A stretch of 63,933 bases of DNA, counting the filler, from Kipferlia bialata (taxonomy: Eukaryota): the NCBI GenBank assembly GCA_003568945.1. It is 6 parts of 6 records of this genome, joined end to end, with 100 filler letters (N's around TTAATTAATTAA, not from the genome) between each part and the next. Parts side by side here need not be neighbours in the genome. Positions count along the whole stretch, not along the records: positions 35,735 to 47,538 come from BDIP01001183.1; 5 more parts are not named here. One strand, written 5' to 3'. The notes under the pieces are model-generated. The model saw only the letters and a program-made list of their open reading frames with translations. It did not search any database and had not been told where the DNA came from. The position numbers and the translations under genes were made by a program. Positions 24,050 through 59,430 of the stretch are shown piece after piece (the stretch's first letter is position 1; every line of letters begins with the position of its first letter).

Positions 24050-25549
24050 ACCCTCATGGACGTCATCCTGTGCCGCAACGCCGCTGAGCTCAGGGCCATT
24101 GCAGACCAGTACGAGCACCAGGTACATAGTATAGAGTATATATATATGGTATATATATTTGAGTATTTATTTGAATATCCATATGGGAGGGAGAGCCATC
24201 GCTGACCAGTACGAGCACCAGGTACATAGTGTATATTCTATAGGTAGATATATAGATAGACAGACAGGTGATACTCTAGTATGTAGCCACTACACCCTTT
24301 GTTTACCCTAGTACCACAGGAACATCCTCTCTGAGCATATTTAGTAGTATTTTAGGTCTGTGTGTCTCTCTCCCCCCCTCCACACCCTTTATTCACCCTA
24401 GTACCACAGGAACATGAGGGAGGACATCCTGTCAGAGTATATATGATAATACTCTAACCTTAAGTATATATATACTCTAGTATAGTATACACTGTATCTT
24501 ACCCATAGTACCACCGCAACATGGAGGACATCCTGTCAGAGTATACATGTATATACACACACATTATATCGTATATATATATATATACACACACACACAT
24601 ATATATATATTAATATAAATATACCCTACTAACGCCAGTACCACCGCAACATGAGGGAGGACATCCTGTCAGAGTATATATGATTATACTCTAACTCTAA
24701 GTATATGTGTGTATATACTTTTATATAGTATACACTATATCTTACCCCCAGTACCACAGGAACATGAGGGAGGACATCCTCTTTCTCTCTCTCTCCCTCT
24801 CTCTCCCTCTACACCCTTTATTCACCCTAGTACCACAGGAACATGAGGGAGGACATCCTGTCTGAGTTCTCTGGCAAGCTCAAGAGGGTCTTCATCGCTG
24901 CTCTCTCCATGGGCCGGTACGCGAGATAAGATATATATAGATGTACAGTATGTATGTACTGCATTGTTATATTTAATATGCATCTCTCTATATATATCCT
25001 TACCTCCCAGTGAGGCCGGCCCCGCCGACATGTCCCGTGTCAACGAGGACGTGCAGGCACTCAGGAAGGCCACAAAGGGTATGTACATATATATATATAT
25101 TAACTCCCTCTCTCTCTCTCTCTATCTCTATCTCTGTCTCTCTCTCTACACCCCTAATGCACAGGCCTTGGCACCGATGAGGCTGCTGTGTACCAGATCC
25201 TGTTCAGCCGCTCCATGCTGCACCTCAGGTATAGTTAATAGGTTGTATACAGTAGATATATGTAGTGTAGCATAGTCATGTGACTTGTGTACCAGATCCT
25301 GTTCAGCCGCTCCATGCTCCACCTCAGGTATAGGGTATCTCTCCCTCTCTTTCTCTCTCTCTCTCGATATACATGTTGTAGAATATAGTATCTCTGTTTC
25401 TCTCTCTCTCTCTTTCTTATCCCCCAGAGCTGTCTCCACCGCCTTCACTCAGTCTATCTCTCTCTCTCTCTCCCCCTCTATATATATACTCATATACGTA
25501 CTGACATCAGGGCCGTCTTCACCGCCTTCACCCAGGCCTTTGGCAAGAG

Positions 25550-25614
<65 letters not shown>

Positions 25615-27020: not shown

Positions 27021-27059
<39 letters not shown>

Positions 27060-27276
27060 ATATATATATATTTATATATGTATTCATATGTCCCTCTGAC
27101 CCTCCAGTACGGTGGTGCCGGCAAGTGCGCCAAGGACATCAAGGGGGACCTCTCAGGTGGGTATAGGATGTATAACTGTGTATCTATTTAGTATGTAAGA
27201 TAGTGAATATTTGTGTATGATCCTCACCTCAGGCAACTACGAGAAGCTCGCCCTCGCCCTCCTCCACATCCAGTAA
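24050..27276 (+). CDS. Annexin; 5' truncated, with an internal 884-N gap
   Basis: Exons: TLMDVILCRNAAELRAIADQYEHQ|YHRNMREDILSEFSGKLKRVFIAALSMGR|EAGPADMSRVNEDVQALRKATKG|LGTDEAAVYQILFSRSMLHLR|AVFTAFTQAFGKSVRDIMKSEFSGK ... GTNDSRLVACLATR..|YGGAGKCAKDIKGDLSG|NYEKLALALLHIQ* (TAA 27274-27276). These are annexin repeats 2-4 with KGLGTDE and I..(E/D).SG motifs. Confidence 0.95.
24312..24780 (+). repeat. Acceptor-side exon-echo array in annexin, 5 copies
   Basis: ag|taccac(agg/cgc)aacat.. occurs at 24312, 24402, 24509, 24639 and 24752. The full exon starts at 24831. Confidence 0.92.
25779..26662. other. Scaffold gap inside the annexin gene
   Basis: N-run without the linker. Annexin repeat 3 lies before it and repeat 4 after it. 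Confidence 0.95.
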
Positions 27277-35734: not shown

Positions 35735-35787
<53 letters not shown>

Positions 35788-35801
35788 CTCTAACCCTCTA
35801 G

Positions 35802-37240
35802 GCCCTGACCAGGTCTGCCAGGGCCAAGGTGCCTGTCAAGAAGAGCGGCACAGCAGAGGAGTGCAAGATGGGTACGAATTCCATATGCAATATATATAGA
35901 TAGCTATGTCTGTATATGTCCATATATGCAAGTATACTAGAAGAGTGGCACAGCAGAGGGGTGCAAGATAGGTGTGTGTCATTAACATATACACTCTACT
36001 ATCTATGCTCCATAGTAATATATATATTCAATATATACATATAAATTAGACACTCACCCCCAGTTGTGCTGGAGGTCCTGGACAGGGAGTACTTCTTCTC
36101 ATTCCCATCGGCAGAGGTATGGTATATACATGCACTCTATTTACTATACTAGTATGTAAACTAGGTGAATGCGACATCTGTGAATATCCCTCTCACCCTC
36201 AGGATGGGCCAGATTACAAATGTGATTAATGTATATATATATGTATATATATATATATCCATACATACTCACATATATACTAAATAATATATAAGTCTCA
36301 CCCTCAGGATGCCACTGGGTGGGCCAGAGTGGCTCTACACTTCTGAAGTTCTCTTCATGAATGTGTGTATATGTGTGTATGTATGTATATATATGTCTCA
36401 CCCCCAGGATGCCACTGGGTGGGCCGGTGTGCTATCGGAGACAGCAGAGGCAGAGAGGGCCAGCAGGTACTGAACGAATAGTATATATGTGGCTAGTCCC
36501 TCATGTGGTATTCTGTGTACTTCATGCTGTATATACTGTATATCTAAATATTTACTTTACAGCATGCCTTACCCCAGGTCCATCTCTGTGGAGGACGGTC
36601 TCTCCTGTTACTAGTGTATCATATGTATTGTGTACAGTATGTATTATATATACTATATATGTATAGCAATACTTACCTTGCAGGTCCATCTCTGTGGAGG
36701 GTGGTCTGTCCTGTGCAGGTGGTATGAGGCTGGACATAGGGGAGGGACAAGATGTCAGAGACCAGGTATATATATACTATATATATATATATATATATAG
36801 ACCAGGTATATACTGATACCTATCTATACATGTATCAATATATGGTGTAGTGTTAGAGGCTGGATATCGGGGAGGGGCAGGACGTCAGAGACCAGGTATT
36901 TATATATCAACCCATCACATGTGGTAGTATATGGCATTCTGATATGGCATTGATATGAGGCTAGGACATAGGGGAGGGGCAGGACGTGAGAGACCAGGTA
37001 TATATATATACTGTATCGGTTCATTGTTAATGGGTGGCATATCACTATATAAGTGTCTGTATATTACCATATATGTATGTATATGTATATAATATAATAG
37101 TATTGTATATATATAAGCAATATATATATACCTCTCACCTATAGGCTGACATGGAGGAGGAGGCAGAGGGAGAGGGAGAGGGAGAGGGAGAGAGAGAGGT
37201 TCCCGATGCTGAGGAGTGCGTGACTGTTGAGGCACAGTGA
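35802..37240 (+). CDS. C-terminal part of a protein with a PH-domain-like end and an acidic tail, 5' truncated
   Basis: Exons: ALTRSARAKVPVKKSGTAEECKM|VVLEVLDREYFFSFPSAE|DATGWAGVLSETAEAERASR|SISVEGG..DVRDQ|ADMEEEAEGEGEGEGEREV..EAQ* (TGA 37238-37240). REYFFxxxSxExxxxW resembles the last strand and Trp-bearing helix of PH domains. Confidence 0.6.
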
Positions 37241-37768
37241 TTAGAAAAGGGTGTAGAAAGAGAGGGGGGGGGAGAGACACACTCACAGAGAGAGAGCCAA
37301 TTGAGGCGTTGTAAAATGTATATATACCATTGTTCCAGGAATGTAGTGTTCACTAAATCAGTTCAAGACATGCATATCAGGAGTGCGTGGCTGTAGGGGG
37401 ACAGTGAGACAGACAGAGAGAGAGTGAGAGTGAATGGGTGTGTATGATGGATGGTACACTATCCACATTGATTCTCAGCCATATTCGGCAGCTGTGAGTT
37501 ACAGGTTGTAACTAAATACTGTTGTTCCAAGATAGATACTGTTGTTGCAAGATAGAGTTCACTAAATCAGTGTTCAGATAAGTAGACAGCTTTGTGACAT
37601 GTAGCCAATATTCAGCCCTGGTGATCTATTGCACTAACCGCTCTATGTACTTAACTGTCCTAGTGTGTTCCCAACGAGTCACTCTGTACAAGGTGCCCTT
37701 GTATCACACTGGTACCATACTATCAATATGTACAGTACATGCTATGCACTGTATGTACTACCAGTGAG

Positions 37769-40267
37769 TCACTCCTGGTTTAGCACTATGGTAGGGCCCT
37801 GCATAGGGAAACAGGTGCCCACCTTCAGAGGCACCAGTGTCTCCTGATATCAGTAACATTGTGTGGTCAATACTTGATATATCCACCACAGTGTATAGTT
37901 ACATAAATACTGATACTGATGACATTGTAATATGTATATGGTATTGGTACGAATATCAATTACACACCCATGTATAGTGTATGTGTGTATGTATATTGTA
38001 TATAGGTATATAGTATATATATATATATATATATATAGTGTGTATATATATAGTGAAAATACCTGGCTAGGCTGACAGGGGTAGGTGCTGGAGGCTCCCC
38101 CAGGCCCTGTCAATGTGATGGTTGTGCCACTACGGGTGACTCTGATGGTGCCAGGACGGCATCCTAAGGGATCAGTGGAAGGGTATCTGTGATACTATCA
38201 CTACTACTCTGAGTAATAGTAATGCAATATAGGTTCTCAATGAGAACTTCTCATATATCTTACCCAAGAGCCGTGCCCCATCCTGTGTCTTGAGGTGCAT
38301 TGGGTTACCAGCAGTCATGGTCCATGTCTTGTCTGACACACTGGGCACAATGAGTGTCACTGGGTCCCACACCCCGACATGTCCATGAGAGACCTGGGGT
38401 CATTTTACTTATTACTGATTAGTAATTAGTTATTACTTATTACTCATTACTTGTATATCCTTCTAAAAAGTGTATATTGAGGGTCACTGGGTCCCACACA
38501 CCGACATGCCCCTGACTGACCTTGTGTCATAATGTGTATCAGGGGTATATAATGTATAGTATATATAGTATATACAAGCATTACTAGAATATACTCCTAA
38601 TAAGTATATATTGAGAGTAACTGGGTCCCACACACCGACATGCCTCTGACTGACCTGGTGTCATGTATATATAGTTACTATATATAGTTACTACATATTA
38701 TAGTATACACAAGTGATACTTGTACACTCTATTAACGAGTATGCATTCACATTCTCTTGGCATCATATGTGTTGTATAGAGCCTAATAGTTGTGCGATAT
38801 AAAGTATCATATATATATATATACCTTCACAACACACTCTGTCGCATAGGATGACTCCTCAAAGCGTGGCACATCACTCTGTTCTACTTGAGTCTTGCAG
38901 TTGGACAACACGCTCTGCAGTCTGCTATGAGAAGAACTAGCACTGTAGACTTTTCACTGAAGAATATAATACACACTTTGTACTTGTACCTCTTTGCAAG
39001 GGAGACACTAGTCACAGCGGCCACCTCAACAGCACACTCATGTAAACTACACGATTCTTGCAGTGCCTGTGAGAGCTCCTCCACTCCGTCACTCTGATTG
39101 AGGAACAAGATCTCAGCAGTAAAGCCAGTTGGGAGGCCTCCAACTTATTGGAGGGCGAAACAAGTAATACACAAAGATCCACAGGGTGGGACATATAAAT
39201 GATAATAGTATATCTTGTAGTGGTGTATACACATACCTAGCAGTTCTAGCAGAGGCTCGTATGGAGGTTCAACGACCCTGGAAGTGATAACCAATAGACA
39301 GCAGTCGGGTGCTGCGAATCTATGGTGAGGGAGAGAGTGACTGTAATATTTACAGTATAAATTATAGTGTGTAATATGGTCCGTAGTATAGTCACTGTAT
39401 GAACATCAGACTGTTAGAATACTCTGACAATAGACTCTTTGATGACAGTGTACCTACGGATAGCTCCTGAGAGACACTCCGATGAGAGTTGTGATGTGGT
39501 CTGTGCCACATAGCCGACAAGGGGGCTGGCAAGTGACTGGTGGTGAGATAGACAATCCTAGTAGTAGACGATGTCGACATACACGCATATATATATATAT
39601 GTATTTCCATATAGTCCTGCCTGTGTCGAGGATACCTCAGAGATGTCATCACAGGACATCGCAAACAGGGAGAGACTGGGTGTCTCGGACTCGGTGCCTG
39701 GGGTCAAGTGCTTATGTGCAATGGAGTGAATGAGACGACCTATAGAAATTTTGAAGAACTGACCATTATACTGTATGGCCATGATATACCCGTGACACTG
39801 GAGCGAGACCATGCAGTAAGTCACATGTATTAATATTCGACACGTACAGAGAGATAGTATTTTACCCTCTATATGTTCAGTAGATTCTTAAACAACGTGG
39901 CTGTTGTGCGTACACAAGGATGGATAGATAATTCATGATAAGAGGACCAGTCAGTTACACACCTACTGGTGTAATGGCAACAGACTTGAGCTGTTCTGAC
40001 ACCAAGTGTGCTGGGGTTAGTGGATATTCTCAGACCAAGCCGTTACATCTTAGTATCACATTTACTCTATGTGCGGAACACATGTGTGGGTACATACGTA
40101 TATGAATGTGTATATGTAAATGTATGTGAGTATAATATACATATGTGTAAGTATATGTGTATGTATATTCATTGTGGATATGTGTATGTGCCTGTACCTA
40201 GCTTTGTCGGAGTCTCTCCCTCTCCCGACACATCAACCACAAGCACAACTGGCTTCAATGATAACAT
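37769..40267 (-). CDS. Hypothetical multi-exon protein; N-terminal VVLVVDVSG resembles a vWA first strand
   Basis: Probable ATG at 40267. Exons: MLSLKPVVLVVDVSGEGETPTKLA|HLVSEQLKSVAITPV|GTESETPSLSLFAMSCDDISE|SLASPLVGYVAQ..|VVEPPYEPLLELL|..SDGVEELSQALQ..|LQSVLSNCK..VVK|VSHGHVGVWDPVTL..|GCRPGTIRVTRSG..|ETLVPLKVG..NQE* (TGA at 37769). Splice sites are canonical; one internal acceptor is uncertain. Confidence 0.6.
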
Positions 40268-41215
40268 CAGGGTCACCTTCTTAACCCAGAGTGCCCAGAG
40301 TACTGTGACACAAGTATTCCGCAAGTACTACTTGACTCAGGTAGTCTACTGGAGGATACTCTAGGTTATGCCACTACACAACTGGATCGTAGAAGAGATG
40401 ATTGTGGACTTGGGTTCAAGAGCTTAACAGTAGAGAGTCTGAAGGAATCAGAGTCTTTGATACCATCATACCTCAAGTATGATGGTAACAAGTATTTCTT
40501 CCGATCACTGTACACTCTTGAGGCTAGTGGTACACTCCTAGTGTACGCTGTAGAATATTGTCTACACTCTAGCTATCACTGTAAACCCGGTAGTGTAGAG
40601 CATAGCCTGATGCTCTATTACTGAATTGATAACACATGATAGAATTGAAGTGAGTGTATGGAAGGAATATTCTGTTAGGGTCTCGGGACCCTGTATTCAT
40701 TTATGCAGTATTCATTTATGCAGAGTATTAATAAATGCATAATATTATCGCTGCGAAAATTCAGTCGAATCCAGACATGGACGGTCAGACAATCTGAATC
40801 AGACGGAGCCAATAGAGTCGTGTCTGTTGGGTCTGTTGCAAGAAGAGACTTCAGATCTATGCTTTGTAAATCACCAGTGACCATTGAAATTTAACCGATT
40901 TTGATAATAACATAACATATGTAGGGCAGCACTGCTAGTGCCCCACTATGTTGTCGATATACATTCAATGAAGAAATATATGATCCTTCCTCAATGATTG
41001 ATGATCAATCTGTCACGTGTCTATTAGTTACCACACACAGTCAACTCACTTCTCTCTCTATTCGATAGAAACTGTATTGCCCTAGAAACAGTCTTGCATT
41101 GTTCTCTCATATGAAAACAACATTCCCCGCTCTCGCGTTAACTCTCGCTCACATACTCTCTTGTGTCGCTCTCGCTATTCATCTTTGCTCTCTCTCTCTC
41201 TCTCTCTGTCTCTCT

Positions 41216-44200
41216 CTACACCCCCTGTACTGTTGTTGTGGTGGTGACACTCACAGGTCTGGCACCGATGGTCCTAAGGGTGAGGGAGAGGGTGATATGG
41301 GTATAGAGAGTTATGGGTTCAAGTATTTATCATACATATACAGTTCGCAGGGAGAGAGAGGGATAGACATACTCAGGTCTGGCTCCTATAGTCCTAGCAG
41401 TCAGTGTAGACATATATATACTATATAGAAATGAACTAGTATATACTGGCCTATATACTCTGGCTACAGTTACGCTATGGCGTTCCCCTCAATGTGTTCC
41501 CGTATATACAGTAGTATACAGAAAGACTCTACCTCACGTCTATGACTGCGATAGCGTTCCCCTCGATGTGTATGAGGGTGGTCAGTGCCGCGAAATAGGG
41601 GTAGGCGACTATCCAGAGGGCAATGCCCTGGGGTCAGACATAAATACAATTTGCACACATATACATACACACACACAAAACTTAATATATATATATGTAT
41701 ACTAAATATATATTCCAATGTTAATGATTGATATGCGACTATCCAGAGGGCAATGCCCTGGAATCAGATTGATATAGCACATATACATATTAACACTGAT
41801 ACACATATAAAAGAAATATAATGAACAACAACGTAAACTGTCACATACAGAGACTAACCCGCACCTCGTACACGAGCATTTGACTAGAAGTATATGGAAT
41901 GCGATTCATAACAGATTGTAAATCCACACACACACGTACAAATACATATATATGTGTGACTCTATATATATATACATAGGCGTACCAGAGTGTATATTAT
42001 ATATGTGTTATTCTGCTCTATATGTGCCTCTATATATATACGTACCAGTATGTTCAACCACCCTGCCAGAACACTGATAGCCAGGGTGAATAGCTGGGGG
42101 TTAGATGGATACGGACATAGATATAGAGAGTGTGTGCAGCAGGGTGTGTCAGCATATAGTATATAGTACTATTAGAGTATATCTCTCTCTTTATCTATAT
42201 ATATGTTCTTACCAGCCACATGAGTGTGTGCAGCAGGGTGTGTCCGAAAAAATAGTATATAGTATATCGCAATGATAGGTCACTCTTTATAGTATATACA
42301 CATATATATAGAGAGATAGGTATATATATATATACACTCGGTGAATAGCTGGGGGTTAGATGGATATAGAGAGGGTACACAGAGTATACAATGTTGAGAA
42401 AACCAGTACTGGTGTGCTATATCATACTTACCAGCCACATGAATGTGTGCAGCAGTGTGTGTCTGCGGAGGGGTGCAGTGAACATGGCTGGGGTGAGACT
42501 GTATATATACTAACGCAGACGAATATATAGAAGATATATATCATTAGTGAACATGACTGGGGTGAGAATATGTATACGGATGTGTCAGTGTTGTGTAAGA
42601 CATACTAGGGATAGTGCAAAGAGTATTACGTATTAAGCTCAACGTGGGAGTGATACATAGTATATACTATATATACTTCATACACTATATCAAGCGTATG
42701 TACCTTTCAGGCTCCCTGTGACCTTGTGCGTGTCTGAGAAGAGCAAGACACTGATATACAATATATATACACATATATATATACTGTATAATATATATAT
42801 ATATAATATTCACTATATATACCTTTGAGGCTCCCTGTGACCTTGTGTGTGTCTGAGAATAGCATGGCAAGGGGCAGATGGGCAATGACAGTGCCTGGGG
42901 TGATATATAGGTGATATATGAATACGCCTCTCAATAAGTGACAGACAGATAATAGCAATGACAGTGCCTGGGGTGAGATACATCCAACTAACAAGGGCAT
43001 GTATGATTCCTATACAAATGTATTGTAATTATAGGTTGATTGATAAGACAATGACAGTGCCCGGGGTGAGATATATTAGTGTATACATGTGTATATATAT
43101 ACAATTATCCATATAAGAGTGTGTTGACACATATACATGTATGTACATATATATATGTGTATGTGTGTATCCTACTTACCTGCCATGATTGATGTGATCA
43201 GTGCTGGAACTGACCCAATACTTCCTGGGGTCAGTGCAGATTACAATAATACAAATAAGAATTATAGTATTTGCCATAAATATTATACATTATTATATAG
43301 AATGTATATTGGGTATTCAAGTTCATATTCAAGTCAAGATTTTGGCGGAATCCATACTCTCCACTCCCTCTTGTTACATACATATACATATGTATATGTG
43401 TATCTATGTATATCCATACCTACCACTGCCATGACCAGTGACACCCCCACCACAGCTAAGTATATATACATATGTATACATACTTGTATATATATATATA
43501 TGTATATATATATATGTATATACCATTACTACCTACCACTGCCATGACCAGTGATGTCACCACCACAGAGATCAGGAGGCACAGCACCATGGGCCAGTAT
43601 CTGGGTATTAATGAAAAGAGAAGGTACAGAATATATAGAGAATGTGTGTGTGTGGTATATGTGGTATGCTAATACTAATACATATGTATCAGGAGGCACA
43701 GCACCATGGGCCAGTATCTGGGTGTGAGAACAATAGAGAGAGAGAGAGAGAGAATCTTACGACCTATTGAACAACCAATTGACATACAACACAATTAGAC
43801 TACACTATATACACTTTACTATATAGATGGATGAATAGTACCTCCCCTTTCTGGCTGTCTTTGTCTACTCCAACCATTGTATCTCTACTTAACTATAATA
43901 AACTATACTCTACTACCCTATACTATACTATATAGTGTACTCTTGATACCTCCCCTTTCTGGCTGTCTTTGTCTACTCCTTGAACAGGGGCCACATACAT
44001 ATACTATTCATTTACAATATACATTGTCACTATTCCATATATACTACATATATACTATATAGTCAATATACTATAGTCTATATACCTCCCCTTTCTGGCT
44101 GTCTTTGTCTGCTCCTTGAACAGGGGGTGCTTACAGGTGGTGCCAAGTCTACAGTGAGAAACATGTATGCATCACACACGCATATATACATATATATATT

Positions 44201-44598
44201 TACAAAAGTATATATATAATAGTATTCATATAGTGTGGAAGAGAAGAGCCTCTGCACTGAACCGACCCACATACACTCATATATAATAGTAATCATACTG
44301 TTAGTACTACCACGCCTAGTACTGTCAGCCCCTGAGAGTCACTATAGCTGAGCGTATATGATGTACATCGAATGTACTCGTATATAGTGTATATACTGTA
44401 TACACTAATATATATGCTATACTATACGTACTGAGTGTCACCACAGCTGGTGTGTATATACTGTATACTCTGTATATAGATAGATGTATATATACAATAC
44501 TACACATACTATATACTATTAGTACCTGAGTGTCACCACCGCTGGTGTATATGCCGACAGGACATAGGGGGCATAGAGCAAGGCTCTGAGCATGAGGC

Positions 44599-44646
<48 letters not shown>

Positions 44647-46874
44647 GGCATAGGGGGCATAGAGCAGGGCGGTGAGTATAAGAACTAATATGTATCAATA
44701 TATAGTATAGAGCAGGGCGCTGAGAATGAGACATCTTAGCAATACTGTGTGCAGGGAATGGAGGGAGGGAGAGAGAGAAAGGGCATAGGGGGCATAGAGC
44801 AGGACCCTGAGCATAAGAACTACCATATGCCATATATGTATGTTGACATATTCACGGAAATGTACATGTATATATACATACAGCTATACAATGTAGGGGG
44901 CGTATAGCAGAGCCCTGGTGGTTAGAGACACACGTGGAAGAGAGAGAGAGATCTCAAGAAATAATACTATCCATTATCTTAGTACAATGAAACTATTATT
45001 CATTGATTAAGGAACCATTGTATATTGATTATAAGACTATTAGATCTAGATTATTCCGACCCAATGAGATACCAAGAAGTACTATCCATTTGTAAGTACT
45101 ATATAGCTATTGAATATTGATTAGCACCCACCCGATGAGACCGACAGCAAAGAGCAGAAGGGTGATGGGCCATGCACCTGGTGTTAATGATGCAACGTAA
45201 TACATGTAGCACATACATTGCAAGAGAGAGAGAAAGATCAGTATCCAACACTCTATAGAAGAATACTAATGTAAATATCTATATATTACTGTATATATAC
45301 GAACTTACAAATCGGAATACGAACCCAAACATCAGTGGGACGTATCCCCACTAAAGATTGTATACTGATGCATGTATGTATATATACACACTCATATATA
45401 CCTACAAATAGGAATATGAACCCAAACATCAGGGGGACGTATCCAATACACTGAAATACATCTACTGATGTATATGTAAACATTAATGGACATGTAATCA
45501 CCTACTAATAGGAATATGAACCCAAACATCAGTGGGACGTATCCACCGAGTGCCAAAAGGCCAAAGGATATGAGGGTCTGGAGGAGGGTGGTGCCAAAGT
45601 TAACCTGGAATAAGGGTCTAGAGAGAGAGAGAGAGAGAGAGGAATCAAAGGATATGAGGGTCTGGAGAAGAGTGGTGCCAAAGTTAACCTGGATTAAGGG
45701 TCTAGAGAGAGAGGGAGAGAGAGGAATCAAAGGATATGAGGGTCTGGAGGAGGGTGGTGCCAAAGTTAACCTGGAATGAGGGTGTAGAGAGAGAGCCCAT
45801 ACCAATATGTCATAGTATACGCTTTCCTAAACTGGCGTGACCTCCATGTATCAATTATTATACCTCAATTGTAATACCTCAGGCACATACATAGTATGTA
45901 TGATACATACTCTCTAATACTTCATACAATTGTTGCAGCTCACCTGGCATAACCTCCATGCCGTGCATATACACTCTATACATGTACCATCGATATTCAC
46001 ACATACGCATATATACATTAATATACATAACCTACCTGGCATAACCTCCATGCCGTGCATATACACTCTATACATGTACCATAGATATTCACACATACGC
46101 ATATATACATTATTATATATACCCTACCTGGCATAGCCTCCATGCTGTGCCGAAGAGGGACCTAATAATGTATACACTGTATATACACTATATATAGCAT
46201 GTACATATGTAGTATATGAATGTATTCATATATATACACACTTGGCATATATATACCTGGCATAGCCTCCATGCCGTGCCGAAGAGGGAATAGAATCAAC
46301 ATACACTATGTATACGTATTATGTATATATATGTGTATGTATACACATACATACACCACCTGGCATAGCCTCCATGCCGTGCCGAAGAGGGACCCATTAC
46401 TATATACACAATAACTATATATATACCTGTATGAATAATACATATATATATATATATACCACATATACCCTACCTGGCATAGCCTCCATGCCGTGCCGAA
46501 GAGAGACCCAATAGTCTCAAACCTAGGGGTGAGGGTATATATATGAAGATAGCATTTTAGTATGTAAACACAATATATATACATGTATACTCATAGGAAG
46601 AGGGAAGAGAGACCAATAGGTCTCCAACCCAGTGCTCTGTCGACATACCCTTGGGTGCTAGGCTGAATATAGTCATATTCCCATATATATATATACACAC
46701 ATATATATATAAATATATAGGTATATAATTGCATACACATACAGGTATTTGTATATATACCTGATGGGTGCTCTATCGACATGGCCAGGTGTGTATGTGT
46801 GGAGGGAGGGGGCAGCGGTGACAGCTGGGGTGAGATATATAGTATGGTTAGAGAGAGGGGAGAGAGAGGGGGGG

Positions 46875-46911
<37 letters not shown>

Positions 46912-47419
46912 ATGTGTGGAGGGAGGGGGCAGCAGTAACAGGTGGAATGAGATATAGAGTATAACGGTATATATATGAAGAGAGAGAGAAGGATTTAGAA
47001 GGAGAGAATAGATCAAGTACCTGTCACACCTCCAGTTGTGACCACAACAGGTGCATATCGCATGTATATATTCTATATATACAGGAATACTATACACCAA
47101 TAGTATCCTGATACGGATAGAGTAGTAGTACCTGTGACTCCCCCGGTTGTGACCTGGACAGGTGCCTCTCATGTGTAAATATTACTATACTATGTATTCA
47201 TAATGAATTCCACTAGTATAAGGATCCTGTTATTGATAATAGTACCTGTGACTCCCCCAGTTGTGACCTGGACAGGTGCATAAAGTATGTAAATATATAT
47301 ACATATATACATATATACTCTATGTCTGCATGAAAAATATACTAAATACCAATAGTAGTCAGATACTGTGTACCTGTGACCCCTCCAGTTGTGACCTGCA
47401 CAGGTGCATACACGACAGG
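41216..47419 (-). CDS. Polytopic membrane protein (about 6 TM), resembling DUF975/YciC/GDPD-membrane-domain-type proteins; 5' truncated
   Basis: Exons splice in frame to ..PIRFETIGSLFGTAWRLCQVNFGTTLLQTLISFGLLALGGYVPLMFGFIFLLVGAWPITLLLFAVGLIGALLYAPYVLSAY..RKGRYWPMVLCLLISVVVTSLVMAVVGSIGSVPALITSIMAGTVIAHLPLAML..GSLKAMF..FMWLLFTLAISVLAGWLNILGIALWIVAYPYFAALTTLIH..QGV* (TAG at 41216). Confidence 0.75.
45830..46395 (-). repeat. Donor-side exon-echo array in the membrane-protein gene, about 6 copies
   Basis: On the + strand acctggcata(g/a)cctccatgc recurs near 45832 (degenerate), 45943, 46035, 46127, 46256 and 46359. The true exon is 46474-46522. Confidence 0.9.
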
Positions 47420-47538
47420 CTGGGGTGAGAGGTATATAGATACAGATGTACATATATATACACATATAAATACATATGTATAGAGAGGTGCATACACGAC
47501 AGGCTGGGGTCAGTCTATACGTATATGTTGCATCAGAG

Positions 47539-47638: not shown

Positions 47639-47698
47639 GGGGGGGGGGGGGGGGGGGGGGGGGGGGGAGAGAGAGAGAGAGAGAGAGAAAGAGGTCAC

Positions 47699-48433
47699 CG
47701 TGCCGGTCAAAAGTGACTTGTCTGAGTAATGGGGGGGTATGTCTTAACCAAGATAGCATAGGATTATATCTATATCTTCACGTACTGGTCATCTGCCATT
47801 GAGTACTCGAGCCAGTAAACAAACCCACACAGGAGAAGAACACCAATGACGGAAGCTGAGGGTTAGGGGAGGGAGGGTGGAGAAAGAGGCCGAGAGAGAG
47901 AGAGAGAGGAACTGAGAAGGTCACCAATAACAGAAGCTGGGGGTAAGGGGGGAGAGCGAGAGAGGGGGGGCACTAACTAGAAGTATGGGAGAGAGAGCGC
48001 AAAGGAAGTGGTATACGGGTAGGAGAGAGCGTACAAGAGAACGACATATGGAGAATATGCGTAGGAGGGAGAGACAAGGGGACAACGTCACTGAGGAGGG
48101 CAAGAGGGCAAGAGAGAGGGGCTGAAAGTGAACCGTATTGCTATGCTTCTGCTCGAAAGTCATGTGTATATTACCTATGATTGTGTTCCTGATCAGCTGC
48201 TTGGTGCACTTGGAAGGCTCATTCTGGGGACTGGGTGAGAGACAGATGGAGACAGAGGGTAAGAGAGAAAGCGATTGGGTGTTTCACAGCAAACAACTGT
48301 CCCAAATGTGAAGGAGGTTAGATGAAGTACTTCATCACTTCCTTGTGTGATTCATTACTTCCTGGTGTGGTTTACAATCTGCAGTACCAACTCACCTGCC
48401 CCCAGAGAGCAGAGAGGCCGTCTCACTTCCCAT
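47699..48433 (-). CDS. N-terminus of a protein with a single N-proximal TM anchor (type II-like); 3' part lost at contig edge
   Basis: ATG at 48433. MGSETASLLSGGS|PQNEPSKCTKQLIRNTII|ASVIGVLLLCGFVYWLEYSMADDQ|QVTFDRH.. comes from four phase-consistent exons. Confidence 0.65.
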
Positions 48434-48923
48434 ATGCGTCAAGGTAAACATAGAGAGAGAGAGGATATTCGACCTTCATACGTTTGTCATCATTAATACG
48501 GTCGAAAAGGGGTTCACTTTTTAGCAGATGCTGCAATATAGCAACACTAGAGAGGGTTACAATAGGGTGTCACTAGCGTTCACAATTTTACGTTCTGATG
48601 ATAGCCTATAGTGGAGAAGGGGATGTCATCTGAACACACATATATAAATATAACAAATACGTTAGAACTGGAAGAAAACGCACTCCGTAATCATATATTC
48701 TATTCTAACATTCACACGTGAGGACACTTGCTCTCTGCAGCTCGTACTCACTATTCATTATCAAGGGTGGCTACTACGAGTATATACCCATACTGACACA
48801 CCCTCTTCACTCTCTACACCCTCTAGTCCCTCTAGTCCCTTTAGAGCCATGTCTCGGAACAGTAAGAGTATACATACACTCCATACTGCACTCCCCCTAT
48901 AGACTCTAGACGCTCCAGGCCAC

Positions 48924-49027
48924 TTAGAGCCATGTCTCGGGCATCACAGTCACGTACTGGTCAGCGATGGTGCTGGGCCTGAGGTCACTGCCGGCAAAGA
49001 GACCGGCCATGCGGTAGGTCCTGGGGT

Positions 49028-49063
<36 letters not shown>

Positions 49064-49097
49064 CAAAGAGACCGGCCATGCGGTAGGTCCTGGGTGT

Positions 49098-49128
<31 letters not shown>

Positions 49129-51134
49129 ATAGAGAGAGAGAGAGAGAAAGAAAGAGAGAGAGAGGGAGTATAGGGTCATACCTGTAAGACTGGATTCCCT
49201 TTGCCTCCCAGGCTGTCCTGAGTGCACCGCTCATCTCCAGCTCCACAGCGTATGTGCCACCTGTCACCATCATGTTGTCACCGAAGAGAGGGTCAGACAG
49301 ACCGCAGGAGAAGTAGACACCTATAGTGAGGAGTCGCAGCACTGTACAGAAAGAAACCGTGTATACATACAGTATGCAGTATATCGGGTACATACACACC
49401 TGTGTCGAGCACTGCACTGGATCCCAGGTAGGGACAGAACACAGGGAGCTCGTAGTCAAAGACCTGCCGTGAGGATATATATAATATACAGTGTAGGAGT
49501 AGAGTCCACAAATGTCACAGTTAGGTTATTTATAGTGATACATAGTGATACAGAATATATGCAGCTCGTAGTCAAAGACCTGTAATGCCAGTATTCTGGC
49601 AGGTACACTCTATGACATATTATTGAACAGCATCTAACCTGGTAGATCTCCTGCCTAGCCTCGTTGACCAGGTAGAGCTGGCCTCTGGAGTGAGAGTATA
49701 ATTATGATACACAATATATACATATATACTGATACTCATATATATATACAGAATATATACTGATACCTGGAGTGTGCGTCGTGGTTGCGCTCGGGGAGGT
49801 ACCTCTCTCCATTGTTGTTGGAGAAGACAGACATGGCATACAGGTCGGGGTGGCCTAATATAAGGGGGAGAGAGAGAGAGAGAGAGAGATGTGGCATACA
49901 GGTCGAGTGGCCTAGACAGAAACAAATGAAGGGGGAGAGGGATTGTTGATGGAGAAGAATACGTGTAGGATTAGTAGAATACATAGACAACCATATATGT
50001 ATAGTGAGAGAGATAGGAAAGGTGTCTACCCTACCTGCAATACCAGTGGCGATGGGGTTGTGCTGGTGGGACCACAGCCAGGGGAACTCCCTCTCGACAG
50101 CCTGGGGGTTAACAGGTATTGATAAATACAACATAAATGGCTGTAACACAAATACAACATAAATGGCACTGGGGTAATGTAACCATCTAAAGAGAGGAAC
50201 TCCCTGGGTGGGAAGGGTATGTCAAATGTACAGAATATATATACATAAGCATATCTACAATATATATATACTATAGACTAACTAACCTCTCCCTCTCCGT
50301 CCACCAGAGTGAACTCAGCAAGGTCAAAGTGGACATCTCCAGTGCCGTCTCCATGGAGACCAACGTCAACCTAGAGGGTGAGAGAAGGATATATACATAC
50401 ATATATATTGAGGGGGAGAGAGAAAGAAAGAGGTACACTGAGTCCTGTGCCCTGACTAACAGCATGATGCCCCAACACTTCCTATATACATCCGCATGCA
50501 TATATATATGTACACACTTACATATATCTATACCTTGTACACAGCGTCCTGGGCCCTGACCGACAGCAGGATGCCTCCATCGGGCATGGGGGAGAAGGAG
50601 TTGCAGTGGAAGGTGTCGAAGGCAATGTCAGAGCCGTAGATGGGGGCATCGCTAAGGAGGGACTGGGGGTAAGAGGAACAGTAAGCTGAAAAAATACAAT
50701 AGTAAACATCAAATCAGTGAAGGAATATATCTAAGTGTATGTCAGAGCCGTAGCTGGGGGCATCGCCAAGGAGGGACTGGGGTAAGAAGAGGATATGCAG
50801 AGCATACAATAGACAGCTGATATACACACCTTGTTGAAGTTGACTGAGACGTATGGCAGGTCGGACAGGTCCTTCTTGATGTTGTCGTAGGACCTCCAGA
50901 TCCACTTGGGCTCCTTGGTGTGGCGGTTGAAGGCTGAGAGTGAGATGGAGTATTGAGAGTGTAAAAGTGTTATACTACACGATCTGTGACAAGTCTGTGA
51001 CAAGGCGTGACGCACCCAGGATGAAGTCTGTCTGGTGCTGGGGCACCTGGTCCCACATGTCCTCGGCTAGGGGGTACTCGAGGATCTTGGCAGCATCGAA
51101 CCAACCAGACAGGCCGGGGTAGTACATGGGGTCC
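48924..51134 (-). CDS. Arylsulfotransferase (ASST)-like beta-propeller, C-terminal portion only
   Basis: Exons: DPMYYPG..QTDFIL|AFNRHTKEPKWIWRSYDNI..|..FDTFHCNSFSPMPDGGILLSVRAQDAVYK|VDV..|..WSHQHNP..|..MSVFSNNNG..S|RGQLYLVNE..|VFDY..YLGSSAVLDT|GVYFSCG..IQSY|RTYR..ETWL* (TAA at 48924). The motifs DxxHxNS, xSxR, xQH, FxN and YR match the ASST family order. Confidence 0.75.
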
Positions 51135-51277
51135 CTAAGGGTAAAGGGGTGGGGGGGGGGGGGGGGGGGGTAGGGGATGATTATGAGAATGTCACTCTTA
51201 ATCTTCATCGATTCAATTGAGGAAGCAAATGTAAATTGTGTTGGTACATTTGTGTATACATATAGATCCATCCACAC

Positions 51278-51615
51278 CTTCCTCGACATCTGTCTGTGCA
51301 TGCGCTCCCCAGCATGGGCATCACTCACCTGGGGTGAGCGATGCATCTCATATATATATATATATATATATATAGATATATGATGCAAATGAGGTTGATG
51401 ATATAATAGAATGTATGTGCAGTGTATACAGCTGAGCACAGCTGAGCTTAGCCGCATATTATAAACAGAACTATGACACAATGGAATGCATACATATATA
51501 TATATATACATTCGTACCATGGGAGTGGGACCGCAGGATGTGGTCTGTGCATCAGACATGCTCAGTTCAAGTCTGGTAGTGAGGGGTAGATATATGTATA
51601 TACACAGGCAGACAA

Positions 51616-51650
<35 letters not shown>

Positions 51651-51736
51651 CTGTGCATCAGACAGCTTGAGTCTGGTCATTAGGGGAGAATATATATCCA
51701 TTTATCTATCTCAAACACAAAAGGACCAAGAGAGAC

Positions 51737-51780
<44 letters not shown>

Positions 51781-52056
51781 AGAAACAATGGGATACCTGT
51801 CCAGGGCACATGGGGGGAAGTATGTCGTGTCGAGGTCATTCTCAAGCTGTGGCACAAAGTATGGCCGAACGTCAAAGAGAGGCCGGCCCCAGCTAGTGGT
51901 TAGAAAGAGCAATCGACACAGGAATATACTAAATGAACTGTTTACATATACGCACCTTATAGGGTCTATGACCAGGTCCATCCCGTCCTCATACCCCTGG
52001 CCAGTGGGGGAGTAGGCAGAGGACTCTGGGAGGGGCATGCCTAGAGTTAGAGGATA

Positions 52057-52090
<34 letters not shown>

Positions 52091-55000
52091 TGGTCAGTGG
52101 GGGAGTAGGCAGAGGTCTCGGGGAAAGGCATGCCTGAGGGGGGTAGGGTAATACACTAACTCTAGCGGCTATTAAGTGAATGTGTATATAGATATGTATA
52201 TATATAGAGAGAGAGAGGGTATGAGAGAGAGATCTTTATACCTGTGAAGTATGAGTGTGTCCTCAGGCTCTCCAGTGAGTTGGGCTCCCCTGGCTTCCCA
52301 GCTCCTGAGGTGAGGTAAGTATATATATATATATACATGTGAATATATATCTGAGAGAGAGAGTGTGTGTGTGTGTAATATACCTAGTCCGTCGCTGGGT
52401 GAGCTCAGCAACTGACAGAGCAGATATCTACCTATCAACCTATATATATAGATAGAGAGAGAGAGAACTATATAGTGCATATATATGTACCTAGCCTATC
52501 ACTTGGTGAGCTCAGCAACTGACAGAGCAGGTCCCAGCACTCATTGGTGAAGAGACCCTCGGGGCGCTCAGGTGGCCTGGGGTCAGAACTAGAACACACA
52601 TAACTATAAAATATTACACCATTCCACATCTGTACCCATGCTCCGAGCTACCATAATGGGCAAGGACTTTGCATAGTAATATAATAACTATCAAATATAG
52701 TATATATTAGTAATAGAATGTATACAAAATATGAATCATGTACCTGTATCCCAGCTCCGTGACAATCTCAAATATGTGCTGGGGGGAGGTGCCACAGAAA
52801 GGGGCATAGCCTGATGGTTAAGTATACTACATATTAAATGAATATAGAAGAACATAATTATAGAACCTTATAGAAACATAATTATATCAAATATGTGCTG
52901 GGGGGACGTGCCACAGAAGGGGGCATAGCCTGATGGTTAAGGTCCAAATGACAATCAACAAATGGATTTAACATATTACTAAAGTGCGTGAGAGTGTGTC
53001 TAACCTGCCACCATCTCAAACAGGATGCACCCCAGGGACCAGAAGTCAACACCCCTGCCATAGCCCTCGCCTGAGGGTAAGGGGGGACATGTATGTGTGT
53101 ATATGCAAATAGTACTACATACAGTGTAATACATATAGTCAACACCCCTGCCATAGTCCTGGCCTGATAGTGAGGGTATATATATATAAATATATGTACA
53201 TATACATCAAGTACTAACTAAACTATAGTATATATAGTCCTGGCCTGGAAGTAAGGAAGTGCGAGGTCGTGATGTATATAAGGTGGTGATAGGATATGTA
53301 TTGCAATGTGTTACCTGACACAACCTCTGAGATGCAGATACTGGGATATATATGTTAGGGGAGAGGGGTACTGTGATTCACTGAGGAGACAGGGTTCAAA
53401 GAGTGGGATGAATAGGGCATGAAACTGAACTGTGATACCTGACACGACCTCAGGTGCCATGTAGGCTGGGGTGCCAACCACACTGTAGGCAAGGTAGCTG
53501 GACATCAGTATATAGTCATAACAGTATACAAGTATATAAAGATGTATCTTAATACATTAGTGCTACCATGCTGTAGGCAAGGAAGCTGGACATTAGTATA
53601 TATGTGAAGGCACACACATATATGTGATACTCCCTAAGCTTGTACTAAAAGGGATGGGATATTACCATTGTGAGTATAGTGAGCACTGATGTACCTGTTC
53701 ACCATCCCCCCACTGCTGCTACTCTCCAGGGCACGGTCACTGGACACAGACGTGTCTCGGGCCTAGAGGGGTGAGAGGGGAATATATATATATATACATA
53801 CATATACACATAATACTATCAATACCATAATACTATCAATACGTAGCGAATACCTTCTCCTCGGCTGTCTGTACCAGCTTGGCCACATTCAATACATATT
53901 ACCACATATATATGCATATGTTCCACTCACAAGCTTAGCATATCCATACCTTCTCCTCTGCTGTCTGCACCAGCTTGGCCAGACCAAAGTCATTCACTAA
54001 ACAATAGACTTGTATATATCACAATAGTATTTATACAAATATATATATACATATAATGTATATACATCCAATATATGTGGTGAGTACCTTCTCCTCTGCT
54101 GTCTGCACCAGCTTGGCCAGCCCAAAGTCAGCCAGCAGAAGGTGGCCTGGGATTAGAAGTATTAACAGGTATACTCATATCATTTATATGTACGATTGTA
54201 ACCTTCAATTCTATGATGATTACACAGCCTTCAAAGGACAAATATCTATGACAGTTCCATATGAAGATTGAAAGAATGGCACTTGCCCACACCTGACTTG
54301 CACTGCGGAAAGATAGTAAACAAATAGTAAGCAATAGAGTCAGCAATTGACAGTGTCCCCACCTGACTTGGCCACTAGGAAGTTGCTGGGCTTGATATCC
54401 CTGGGGGTGAGGGGAGGAATGAGGAGACATAGAAAGGGAGAGCAAGAGAAATAGAGAGAGTATGTGTCTGGGATCAACATGGGTGAAATTGATGCATAAT
54501 TCCCTTATCATACATGAGAAAGAGCGGCTGAGGGTAATAAGGGAAAAAATTGTGAATATTGTGGGATATAGGTATTCTCCTATCCTACCTGTGCACAAAC
54601 CCTGAGTCGTGCAGCAGTGAGACAGACTCAACCATCTCGGCAAAGTACAGCCTGGGGGTAAGGTTACTACTACAATATCCAGACGCATCCAAGAGTAAAA
54701 ACACAGTATATATAGTGTATAGTGAGACAGACTCCACCATCTCGGCAAAGTACAGCCTGGGGGTAAGGTTACTACTATACAATCCAGCCACATCCAAGAG
54801 CAAATACACAGTATACATAGTGTACAGTGAGACAGACTCAACCATCTCGGCAAAGTACAGCCTGGGGTGAGGTCACCATACAAATTGAAGGGACTATACA
54901 AGAGTAGTAGGTGAGGGGAATCGATGGCGGGTGGGGAGAGCATAACAGTATACGAAGTACACATATACGTAGTATACAACCACCTCGGTTAAGTGCAGCC

Positions 55001-55140
55001 TGGATATATACAAAGAATGCTACAAGGGCAGTACATGTTGTACAATCTGTAGAGTATACCTAGCAGCATCTTCTGGGAATGCCCCCACCATGGAGAGTAG
55101 GTATACATCTATAGACAGAGTATCACTATACCATACATAC

Positions 55141-55173
<33 letters not shown>

Positions 55174-55413
55174 GTACTCTAAATATGAATGTACCTAGCA
55201 GCGTCCTCTCGGAATGCCCCCACCATGGAGAGGTGTGTATATAGCATACCACCAAATATATATATCTAGTAGTCTATCATATATATACATACATATAATA
55301 CCTAGCAGCGTCCTCTGGGAATGCCCCCACCATAGATAGTAGGTTGGAGAAGTCACCCCCGTTGGCATAGTCCATGACAAAGAACAGGGCGTCCTAGGCA
55401 TAAATACATACAT

Positions 55414-55455
<42 letters not shown>

Positions 55456-56213
55456 ACAGAGAGGGAGAGAGAGAGAGAGAGAGGGAGCATCCCGATTGGC
55501 ATAGTCCATGACAAAGAACAGGGCGTCCTAGGTGTTAATAGAGTCATATACATAGTATATGTATATACTTATACTTAGAGAGAGAGAATCCTCATTGGCA
55601 CAGTCCATCACAAAGAACAGAGCATCCTAGGCATTAATAGAGTGATATACATAAAGATAGAGAGAGAGACAGAGACAGAGAGAGAGAGAAGTCACCCCCG
55701 TTGGCATAGTCCATGACAAAGAACAGGGCGTCCTGAGTATAAGAGAAGTAAATATATACATATATATATAGAGAGAGAGAAAGAGTATCCCCGTTGGCAT
55801 AGTCCATGACAAAGAACAGAGCATCCTAGGCATTAGAAGGATATATATATATAGAGAGAGAGAGAGAGAATCCCCGTTGGCATAGTCCATGACAAAGAAC
55901 AGGGCATCCTTGGTATTAATAGAGTGATAAACATAAAGATAGAGAGAGAGACAGAGAGAGAGAGAGAGAACCCCCATTGGCATAGTCCATCACAAAGAAC
56001 AGGGCGTCCTGAGTATAAGTACATACATAGAGATAGAGAGAGAGAGAGAGAAATAGAGAGAGAGAGAGAGAGAGAAAGAGGTATCCCAGTCTGATGACAA
56101 CATAAATACATGTATCCATAGAGAGAGGTATATATATGTATATATACCTAGATCTAAGTACCTCTGTCTGGAATGCATAGTACAGTCTGATCACAACATA
56201 AATACATATATCC

Positions 56214-56250
<37 letters not shown>

Positions 56251-57744
56251 TAAATACATGTAAATATACATAGATATATAGAAAGGTAATCCCATCCTAA
56301 CGAAATAGGGCGATACCTCTGTCTGGAATGCATAGTGCAGTCTGATCACGGCCTTGCTCCGAGGGTCCTTGCCATCTGCCACTGGCGGTGAGATGATATT
56401 CTCTCTCTCTCTCTCTCTATTTATCTCTCTCTCCCCATATCTATCTATGTACTCCTGACCAAGTAATGCCGCCCTCTCCGCCCTTATCCACTACCCTATC
56501 TCTCTCTCTCTATATATATAATCATTTATATAGTAGCATCTTTACTTGCCTAACAGTGCCGCCCTCTCTGCCCTCATCCGCCTCTGTGGGTTGGGTCCAG
56601 TCACAAGCTCCTTGTTGATGACCTAGCATTAGAATCAACGTGTAGTTCGTAGTTATTAGGTAAGAGAGTATTGGTAAACAATAGCACAGTTGCAAGAGTA
56701 CAAACCTTCATGGCATAGAGCTGTCCGTTGGTCTTGCTCCTCACCAGGTACACCTCGCTGAACCCTGATGATAAGTACACACTCTATTTACATGGTAGTA
56801 TATGTGGACACTGTATGGGTGTCAGTAACATAGATGAATATTGACACACTATATGGGCTGTACCTCCTCTGCTTAATAGCTTGATCTGCTCAAAGTCATC
56901 CTGTGAGACTGTATGTATAGAGAAAACAAATATGCATTTAATACATGCACTATATATATAATACGCCATACCTCCTCTGCTTAATAGCTTGATCTGTTCA
57001 AAGTCATCCTGCGAGACCCCTGCCCTCTTGGACCTCAGCAGAAGGGTCTCTCTGGGGGTAAACTATATATAGTAGTATGATGGTAGACATATGATATGGT
57101 GGAGTCTCAGCAGTAGGATTTCCCTATAGGTTAAGAGGTGCGTACGTGTTGGGGGTAGGCATATATCGATACGTTGGTATATATACATACCTGGCCTTGA
57201 GTGCATCCAGTGCATCCTGGTGTTCCTCATATATATATATGAATATATATATATATATCTAACCAGCGATAGTACATATACATAGCATATACATAGCATA
57301 TATACATATATATACATATACATACATATACATACCTGGCCTTGAGTGCATCCAGTGCATCCTGCTGTTCCTCACCCTCGAAGCCAGACAGGACATCGTG
57401 TCTCCTGGGGTTAGATGGATAAGTATCCGTAGTATATCATTGGAAATAGTAACACGAGAGACTCCAAGCTCATACATATCCAGACATGACATCGTGTCTC
57501 CTAGGGTGAACAAAAGAATCTGACAATGATTCCATTCATTAGAGATGTACAAATAGCATTACTACACACCTGGCTCGCCGTGCGTATAGATACCGGTTCA
57601 TCTCCAGGTAGTACTGGCCCATATAGCACTCTGACAGTAAGGATCGGGAGAGGAGACAGGGTGTGTACTGAAGTCTTGCATATCCCGTAAGCATAACCTC
57701 TCACCTAGACTCTCCACTGCCGCCAGCACCTTCTCCTTGACCTT

Positions 57745-57790
<46 letters not shown>

Positions 57791-59032
57791 CCATATCCTC
57801 TCACCTAGACTCTCCACTGCTGCCAGCACCTTCTCCTTGATCTCACCCCATCTGGCAGCATCCACACCTGGGGTCAGAGTAATATTATGTATATATATAT
57901 ATATATATATGCATTGACTTCTATACACTGAATATATAAAATAAAGATCTAGAGCTCCATCTGGCAGCATCCACACCTGGAGTGAGAGAGTATGGTATAC
58001 AAAGGTGTGTATAGTATACTACTTGGGGAGTGAAAATAATTGTCAGGAACTACTCTATGTCAGATACAGAGAGCCTAGCTCCAATATATACATATATATG
58101 TGAAGAAGATATATACAGTGAAGAGAAAGGGGAGTGAAAGAGAGTACCTAGTGAGTCCAGGTCTATCTGATCCTGAACACATATATATGTATATATATAT
58201 ATGTGTGTATATATATATAGAGAGAGAGGTAGAGAGAGTAGTACCTAGTGAGCCGACGTCCATCTGATCCTGACCACATATATGTGTATGTGTATATATA
58301 GAGAGAGAATGAGAGACAGAGAGAGAGAGGGAGAGAGTAGTACCTAGTGAGTCCAGGTCTATCTGCTCCTGGGCCTCTGTGTATGTATGTATATATATAC
58401 ATATATATATAAATACAGAGAGAGAGAGAGAGAGAGTAGTAGCAGTATACCTAGTGAGTCCAGATCAATCTGCTCCTGCGCCTCTGTCTGGGTGCCGAGG
58501 ATCTGTGGTGAGACGCATATATAGTAGAATGGATATGGGAAGTTGTGGATAAGAACCTGAGGTCATAGAATGTCTGGGTGCCAAGGATCTGTGGTGAGAG
58601 TGTATGGGGGCATAGAGTATTAAGGATACATACACACATAGCATATCCTATATACATAGTACATAGGATATGGGTAGTAGAGTAGGTAGTTGGCTGTGGA
58701 TGGGTCATGTATGTATACCTTCAACACATGCCACATAACCCACATCATAATCCTAGATACATGCACACATGATACTCCTGTACACATACAGAGTGAATAA
58801 GAAGGTGGAACAATATGGGGTATATAGATGGTCATCATGATACAGTGGTATATCCAGGTCAATGTGTACTCACCGTCACATCGATCCAGTCATCACTGTT
58901 CGCACTGCCAGGCCTCTCCTCTCCCGCTACCTCTCTCCCTCCCTCCATCCCGTCCTCCCTCTCACAACCTCTCCCTTCCCTCTCTTCATTGACTGGACTA
59001 GCCCCATCAACCCCTTCATAGTCCTCACTCAT
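51278..59032 (-). CDS. AGC Ser/Thr kinase, NDR/Dbf2-Sid2-like
   Basis: Probable ATG at 59032 (MSEDYEG..). The N-terminal regulatory-like segment reads YMGQYYLEMNRYLYARRAR..ARETLLLRSKRAGVSQDDF. The catalytic core reads IKLLSRGGFSEVYLV..YAMKVI, RAERAAL, LHYAFQT, FFVMDYANGGDF, ARLYFAEMV, HRDIKPSNFL, LADFGLAK, insert, AYSVVGTPAYMAPEV, VDFWSLGCILFEMVAGYAPF, DRLG. The AGC tail is PYFVPQLENDLDTTYF. I found no hydrophobic-motif exon and no stop. Confidence 0.92.
55490..56010 (-). repeat. Acceptor-side exon-echo array in the kinase, 6 copies of DALFFVMDYAN separated by (GA)n/(TA)n
   Basis: On the + strand ttggca(t/c)agtccat(g/c)acaaagaacag(g/a)gc(g/a)tcct recurs six times upstream (in transcript sense) of the full exon at about 55302-55393. 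Confidence 0.92.
56382..56549 (-). other. GC-AG intron in the kinase gene
   Basis: The exon ends ..CTG TTA G|GCAAGT and the next exon (TG GCA GAT..) needs phase 1. The nearby GT donor gives the wrong frame. Confidence 0.75.
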
Positions 59033-59430
59033 CACAAGCCGACACCCACTCTCCAAGCAGCGGCTACTAGCCCCCCTGCTCAGGTGGATCCGGTGCTAAC
59101 TCTCTGTAGTACTGTAGTGGAGTGGTCAAGAGAGTGGCAGGTCCTGATACTTCTGTAACTGGGTGTACTCCGCTAGGACCCCAGGGGAGACCCCTACGAC
59201 AACCTCAGGAGTGCGCAAGCACCAGGGTGCTTTGTTACAAGCACACTACTCCCACAGAGAGCGTTGCAGTCAGGGGTAGGCTCTAAACAGATGGTGACAT
59301 AGGCCTAGAGATGCAAGTGTTTTTGTCTTGACAGGTCGAAAGGGTGTAGCGTCGAGTCACATCGATTCGGATCAGTTTGCATTGCCAACCACAAGACATC
59401 AACCCTGTACCTCAGGGACATCAGGCGTCG

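Follow-up and report, generated by a model that had tools for sequence, protein, structure and literature searches.

Stacked copies of exon ends in introns of Kipferlia bialata, and one intron that holds copies of both of its exon ends side by side

In six genome segments of the free-living protist Kipferlia bialata, roughly half of the introns contain one-sided copies of the neighboring exon ends, stacked in steps of about 106 nt and differing from the exons mostly at silent sites. One intron, in the gene KIPB_005168, had been singled out in a preliminary description as containing a copy of its own spliced exon-exon junction, and we found that it does hold copies of both exon ends, joined to each other. 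The stacked copies, with their coding signature and regular step, are more surprising than this fused copy, which by itself proves little and does not alone demonstrate the gain of an intron.

The window, by which we mean the whole stretch of DNA analyzed (63,933 nucleotides, filler included), consists of six pieces joined by 100-nt spacers at positions 11816, 23728, 35635, 47539, and 59431. The pieces are unlinked contigs of ~11.8 kb each, and genes on either side of a spacer are not neighbors. KIPB_005168 (P0001) matches the piece at 35735-47538 exactly, and P0002, a gene model that includes a kinase and an arylsulfotransferase, matches the piece at 47639-59430. We use the term “echo” for a one-sided copy of an exon end, that is, the exon end plus GT located after the donor or AG plus the exon start located before the acceptor. 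Exact spliced mapping yielded 14 annotated introns in P0001 and 23 in P0002, of which 36 were used; the first annotated P0001 intron is doubtful, seemingly taking an echo as an exon, and was omitted. A further 90 introns are predictions of a gene finder trained on the annotated genes, giving a total of 126.

Self-comparison of the window returned 232 local direct repeats, all within 615 nt, and 0 of the 232 local repeats were inverted; these repeats are the echoes. A strict test detected echoes in 59 of the 126 introns, with all six pieces represented; 43 echoes lie in the 36 annotated introns, versus 0 in 1190 null tests. A census of the 126 introns by local score identified a donor echo in 48, an acceptor echo in 45, and both in 16. 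The echo unit measures 106 ± 17 nt (n = 100) and comprises ~31 nt of exon and ~75 nt of filler, with a weak anticorrelation between echo length and filler length (rho -0.21). Intron lengths are periodic at ~109 nt (p 0.002 under a jitter null, for the 115 introns under 520 nt). Most echoes retain the splice dinucleotide (GT in 59 of 63, AG in 39 of 42), and echo donors score like real donors. Donor echoes typically reach the exon end exactly and then stop (67 of 82).

Duplicated alternative exons were rejected as an explanation because the partner splice site lies beside the echo in only 1 of 61 and 0 of 40 cases and only 1 of 105 echoes is a full-length exon copy. Haplotypes assembled in series were rejected for one echo, which is spanned, together with its filler and exon, by a read-derived DNA contig. 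In one RNA-type contig, a kind of evidence that drops rare forms, splicing at one exon follows the outer sites.

When the nearest echo was compared with its exon, we counted 81 synonymous and 27 nonsynonymous differences (pS 0.16, pN 0.02, pN/pS 0.13). They are distributed 17/9/82 over the three codon positions, so that third positions account for 76%, versus 46% in simulations of a neutral echo beside a drifting exon. Among variants private to single echoes, 36 are silent and 19 are not, and changes run in both GC directions (77 versus 63). The bias toward silent differences is seen on every piece but is absent for the acceptor echoes of the kinase piece (5 versus 7), and it is weaker in the annotated genes alone (20 versus 11, pN/pS 0.21, p 0.016). 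A first pass with a looser extension gave 58 silent differences out of 112 (p 0.085 against an expectation of 45%); we prefer the stricter comparison because the looser extension ran into unrelated sequence and an indel. Given that the differences lie mostly at silent sites, it is likely, judging from sequence, that each echo once coded.

The fillers behave differently from the exon parts. A clear relation between the filler and the working intron end is evident in 3 of the 67 nearest pairs, and on average there is a weak excess of similarity (p 0.002). In annotated genes 6 of 62 pairs, two poor echo calls being omitted, exceed the 5% null. Three units are plain tandem duplications. For most echoes, plain duplication was rejected on the scarcity of related filler and on the silent bias. 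Fast decay of filler was also rejected as a general cause, since copies 3 and 4 in the intron that begins at 46473, a clear tandem duplication, show a similar degree of conservation in exon part and filler.

Several loci show what such stacks look like. At 43830-44085 (minus), two donor echoes have a common CAG-to-TAG change and unrelated fillers, which implies that units are also built from already dead echoes. The kinase-gene intron at 55400-56020 (minus) carries about eight acceptor-side echoes of one exon start, with mostly silent differences; the P0002 annotation starts inside the exon echoed there, and plausible upstream kinase exons reach ~57900. At 47016-47419 (minus), the KIPB_005168 model splices a donor echo as a mini-exon; a better fit is a longer exon at 47419-47374 followed by three echoes downstream, and echoes are therefore a probable cause of annotation errors. 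The P0002 model at 48927-57900 (minus) links AGC-type kinase and arylsulfotransferase domains via an 82-nt intron that is weak and bypasses an in-frame stop, and it may represent two genes fused by annotation. Elsewhere in the window, predicted exons presumably resemble an equilibrative nucleoside transporter (19500-23650, minus), an annexin (24050-27160, plus), and a beta-propeller repeat protein (12288-18950, plus).

The gene that holds the fused copy and the parts of the intron concerned are as follows.

41219..47419, minus: gene KIPB_005168, a predicted membrane protein of 294 aa in no Pfam family, most of whose introns have echoes
46761..46824, minus: upstream exon, from exact P0001 mapping and the loose end of an RNA-type contig; its end supplied the first half of the copy
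46523..46760, minus: focal intron, 238 nt, GT..AG, phase 2, AG/GT junction, from exact P0001 mapping
46647..46760, minus: donor and AT-rich filler, unlike the downstream exon
46632..46646, minus: donor-side echo, 14/15 identical with one silent change, stopping 7 nt short of the exon end
46629..46631, minus: three-base join TGG, one transition away from the acceptor’s TAG
46604..46628, minus: acceptor-side echo, corresponding to nt 1-25 of the downstream exon with 1 substitution and 2 one-base indels
46523..46603, minus: second filler, which includes the branch site and acceptor in use (acceptor PWM 10.4)
46474..46522, minus: downstream exon, 49 nt, from P0001 mapping and covered by an RNA-type contig
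45605..46473, minus: the following intron, containing echoes on the donor side (five) and the acceptor side (two), the first of them spanned with its filler and the exon by one DNA contig

A protein search with P0001 retrieved no relatives, the single other match being a repetitive, unrelated protein. Its Atlas look-alikes, which all score below 0.9, are DUF975/DUF7847-like membrane proteins and provide a lead only. Scans of metagenomes for relatives of P0001 or other isolates returned either nothing or generic kinases at ~30% identity (13 loci, none of them used).

The intron at 46760..46523 (minus) had been placed correctly, and the AG/GT reported at its mRNA junction is borne out by both the annotated mapping and an RNA-type contig. 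Splicing is indicated by a contig from run X2, which we presume to be RNA, that lies over the downstream exon and has loose ends corresponding to the upstream and next exons. The inner copy has a joint score of 45, whereas 1190 tests with foreign introns gave at most 25, and 0 of 1450 null tests produced a two-sided copy. Its upstream half, taken alone, is borderline (25, with a null maximum of 24). This half, 46646-46632, matches positions -22 to -8 of the upstream exon, and a weaker extension reaches 46656 (19/25). The last 7 nt of the upstream exon, including the AG of AG/GT, are missing and have TGG in their place. The preliminary description was right that both exon ends are copied side by side within the intron, and its statement that they are joined directly there was not confirmed; the copy lacks the bases of the junction itself. 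When all 126 introns were checked for copies of their own junctions, this intron was the only one to have such a copy. Two other junction-like matches, at 14267 and 25229, were discarded because each is an acceptor echo with a consensus that resembles an exon end. The fused stretch is drawn from the assembly alone, with read-derived DNA contigs leaving 46511-46575 and 46613-46676 uncovered, gaps that by themselves count neither for nor against the join. The length of the intron equals that of a 136-nt donor-side unit plus a 106-nt acceptor-side unit, less 4 nt, with no inner core.

We favor, as an evenly poised proposition, the reading that the stretch consists of a donor echo that became fused to an acceptor echo when a microhomology-guided deletion took out the intron core. 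The intron would first have gained one echo unit at each end; the deletion would then have started 7 nt into the upstream echo and ended at the acceptor of the other echo, guided by the CAC/CACCC and AGGT motifs that exon end and acceptor share, and the dead acceptor TAG would have decayed to TGG. A join of the exon end minus 7 nt to an acceptor TAG scores 64, the best of 108 variants, and the spliced junction scores 54, an advantage of only one or two bases. Rough estimates of decay give an exact junction a chance of ~2.5% at flank rates and deletion joins 11 to 14%. The core measures -4 nt in the focal intron versus 58 to 180 nt in 14 other two-sided introns, after removal of three rows with negative cores in which a single stretch had given both matches or an echo had been predicted as an exon. 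Among 70 echo-bearing introns, none has a core between -4 and 53 nt except the truncated intron 42431-42094 (minus). That intron offers a precedent in the same gene, in that one of its donor echoes lacks the last 9 nt and is joined, through a CTC overlap, to sequence 34 nt ahead of the acceptor. Its other donor echo is preceded by a short acceptor echo, as whole-intron duplication would lead one to expect. For deletion guided by microhomology between splice sites there is a published model, which predicts AG/GT microhomology equally well, according to the sections of PMC3020277 available. Against the deletion, a random one would rarely end within 4 nt of the exact junction, and two units without a core are equally the layout expected from a route of intron gain. 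The preliminary description had named the chance fusion of two echoes, one from each side, by deletion as what would refute the idea of a relic; such a fusion is favored by the better join fit and the precedent.

That route of gain, which we consider possible but on the unlikely side, has two steps: an intronless AG/GT site takes a donor-side unit whose copied exon end serves as the first acceptor, and an acceptor-side unit later displaces that acceptor, together with the beginning of the next exon, into the intron. It is a modified version of the idea in the preliminary description. It accounts for the length of two units without a core, and the focal junction could serve as a cryptic donor (fair, rank 5 of 126) and, weakly, as a cryptic acceptor (rank 15 of 126). 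In introns shorter than 100 nt (n = 23, a subset chosen post hoc), the exon end resembles the intron’s own end more closely than in shuffled pairs (p 0.0008 and 0.0006), a signal absent from 101 longer introns. Five short introns of 68 to 85 nt are candidates for recent gains, at 2964-3048 (plus), 20014-20081 (minus), 49685-49766 (minus), 7164-7241 (plus), and 49321-49399 (minus); in each, the intron end repeats 6 to 9 nt of the upstream exon end or otherwise resembles it. Direct repeats at intron boundaries are described as a mark of intron gain by break repair in excerpts of PMC4202315 and PMC3020277, and boundary repeats also appear in part of PMC11782384. However, the repeats of the short introns span just 6 to 9 nt, and a long exon copy serves as the acceptor in 0 of 126 introns, the nearest projected end being 25 nt off. 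The working acceptor is no more like the exon end than chance would have it (p 0.25), and the exon end scores 2.0, below the 5th percentile (3.5) of real acceptors. A template of spliced RNA or cDNA, also raised in the preliminary description, would either convert a pseudo-intron between two echoes or insert a junction fragment. The order and register of the copy agree with the mRNA to within 4 nt, and precise intron loss templated by cDNA is established (PMC3020277, in part). Such a template predicts the exact junction, yet 7 nt are replaced, and decay would produce this with the ~2.5% chance given above; a junction-spanning copy is confined to 1 of 126 introns, and most donor echoes end at the exon end, unlike a copy of mRNA. 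We regard this origin as distinctly improbable.

It is very doubtful that the upstream half is partly a chance match or the join an assembly error. The borderline score of that half, its overlap with a donor-like GTATGT, and the gap in DNA contigs at the join speak for it; the joint score of 45 against 25, in the correct order and register, speaks against chance. As for error, 93% of the words sampled from 38000-47500 are present in run X1, possibly the source data of the assembly, and a neighboring echo is spanned by a read-derived contig. The least probable origin, in our view, is the one first proposed, tandem multiplication of an AGGT-containing coding segment into at least three copies, the outer ones having decayed. 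The AG/GT junction and the junction-like inner copy fit it, but the start and end of the intron are not copies of the downstream and upstream exon (p 0.93 and 0.25), fillers are AT rich and unlike exons while the inner copy is ~88% intact, the inner copy has no AGGT junction, and there is no tandem array at the focal intron. The AG/GT excess that this origin implies was absent, with 17 of 126 junctions against ~20 expected from AG/ (96) and /GT (26). The copy is more than chance, but the classical mechanism fails on the intron ends and on the lack of an AG/GT excess.

For the echoes in general, as distinct from the fused copy, we think it likely that they are former alleles pushed aside in the course of DNA repair. 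By the simplest route, ~100 nt comprising the exon end, the splice site, and ~75 nt of intron would be copied from a diverged allele to mend a broken exon, the template allele having a conserved exon and an unlike intron. The copied end would then be rejoined to the old end by alternative end joining, leaving the former coding end inside the intron, and selection would retain solely events that cross one splice site. A process of this kind, one-sided invasion, is known from engineered breaks: one end copies a homologous template into nonhomologous sequence, and illegitimate rejoining leaves a duplication plus filler. The echoes resemble its product in both respects, and we infer its action at splice sites across the Kipferlia genome. 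The model leaves the tight unit length unexplained, and no diverged allele was seen in the one protein record or, over one exon, as an unlike contig of run X1. Metamonads lack Ku and DNA-PKcs, and with them Ku-type nonhomologous end joining (NHEJ), and have kept alternative end joining fully or partly (PMC8516963, in part), and the available text of the Kipferlia genome paper suggests diploidy (PMC5874029). More speculatively, Kipferlia might rebuild its splice sites with ~100-nt pieces of diverged alleles and also create introns at intronless AG/GT sites in this way, leaving 46604-46646 as a stranded intronless ancestor; we judge this broader scheme unlikely. Were such rebuilding by allele swap to occur, introns would lengthen in quanta and preserve past alleles as a fossil series.

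At single loci, repeats that cross an exon-intron boundary and contain silent donors are already known. In the human F7 gene, the 37-bp VNTR of IVS7 is such a repeat, with silent extra donors downstream of the real donor and the exon end before each, as described in excerpts of PMC1557585. The F7 repeat is a uniform minisatellite at one locus, whereas the Kipferlia echoes occur in about half of the examined introns, on both sides, with differing fillers and a bias toward silent change. Repetition of the whole unit including its intron part, as in F7, was seen in Kipferlia in only the 3 of 67 pairs with clearly related filler, and the copies did not diverge neutrally (pN/pS 0.13, third positions 76% versus 46%). 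In the Rogers model, an intron is made out of exon copies (PMC4974935 and PMC3443670, each in part). Kipferlia shares with it exon-derived sequence within an intron at an AG/GT junction and differs in that exon copies do not form the intron ends, the filler consists of unrelated sequence, and the bases of the junction are lacking. The neointrons of Daphnia (PMC4202315) and the Farlow model (PMC3020277), as far as the available portions describe them, have in common with Kipferlia direct repeats of exon ends, AT-rich filler with no known source, and deletion at microhomology. Boundary repeats in Daphnia measure 4 to 12 bp, whereas the echoes have a mean length of 31 nt, form stacks with a ~106-nt unit, and bear the signature of coding selection; gain by break repair in Daphnia and the Farlow model also differs in its cellular setting, given that metamonads are without Ku-type NHEJ according to the portion of PMC8516963 cited above. 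We found no published report of the echo pattern in Kipferlia in a search that left most subscription journals outside its reach, and the available parts of the genome paper (PMC5874029) and of PMC6679479 do not mention it.

The source of the sequence in new introns is unknown for most gains, as stated in excerpts of PMC4974935 and PMC4202315. The Kipferlia genome has 124,912 introns, and whether they are ancestral or lineage specific was left open in the available text of PMC5874029. Echoes mislead gene prediction, as in the annotated first intron of KIPB_005168, which apparently takes one as an exon. If half of the introns of Kipferlia do hold stacked exon ends that once coded, then a single genome would record tens of thousands of dated repair events. 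These would allow intron gain, growth, and loss by break repair to be tested in a lineage without NHEJ, and the choice of the outer site over intact decoys by a reduced spliceosome could likewise be put to a natural test.
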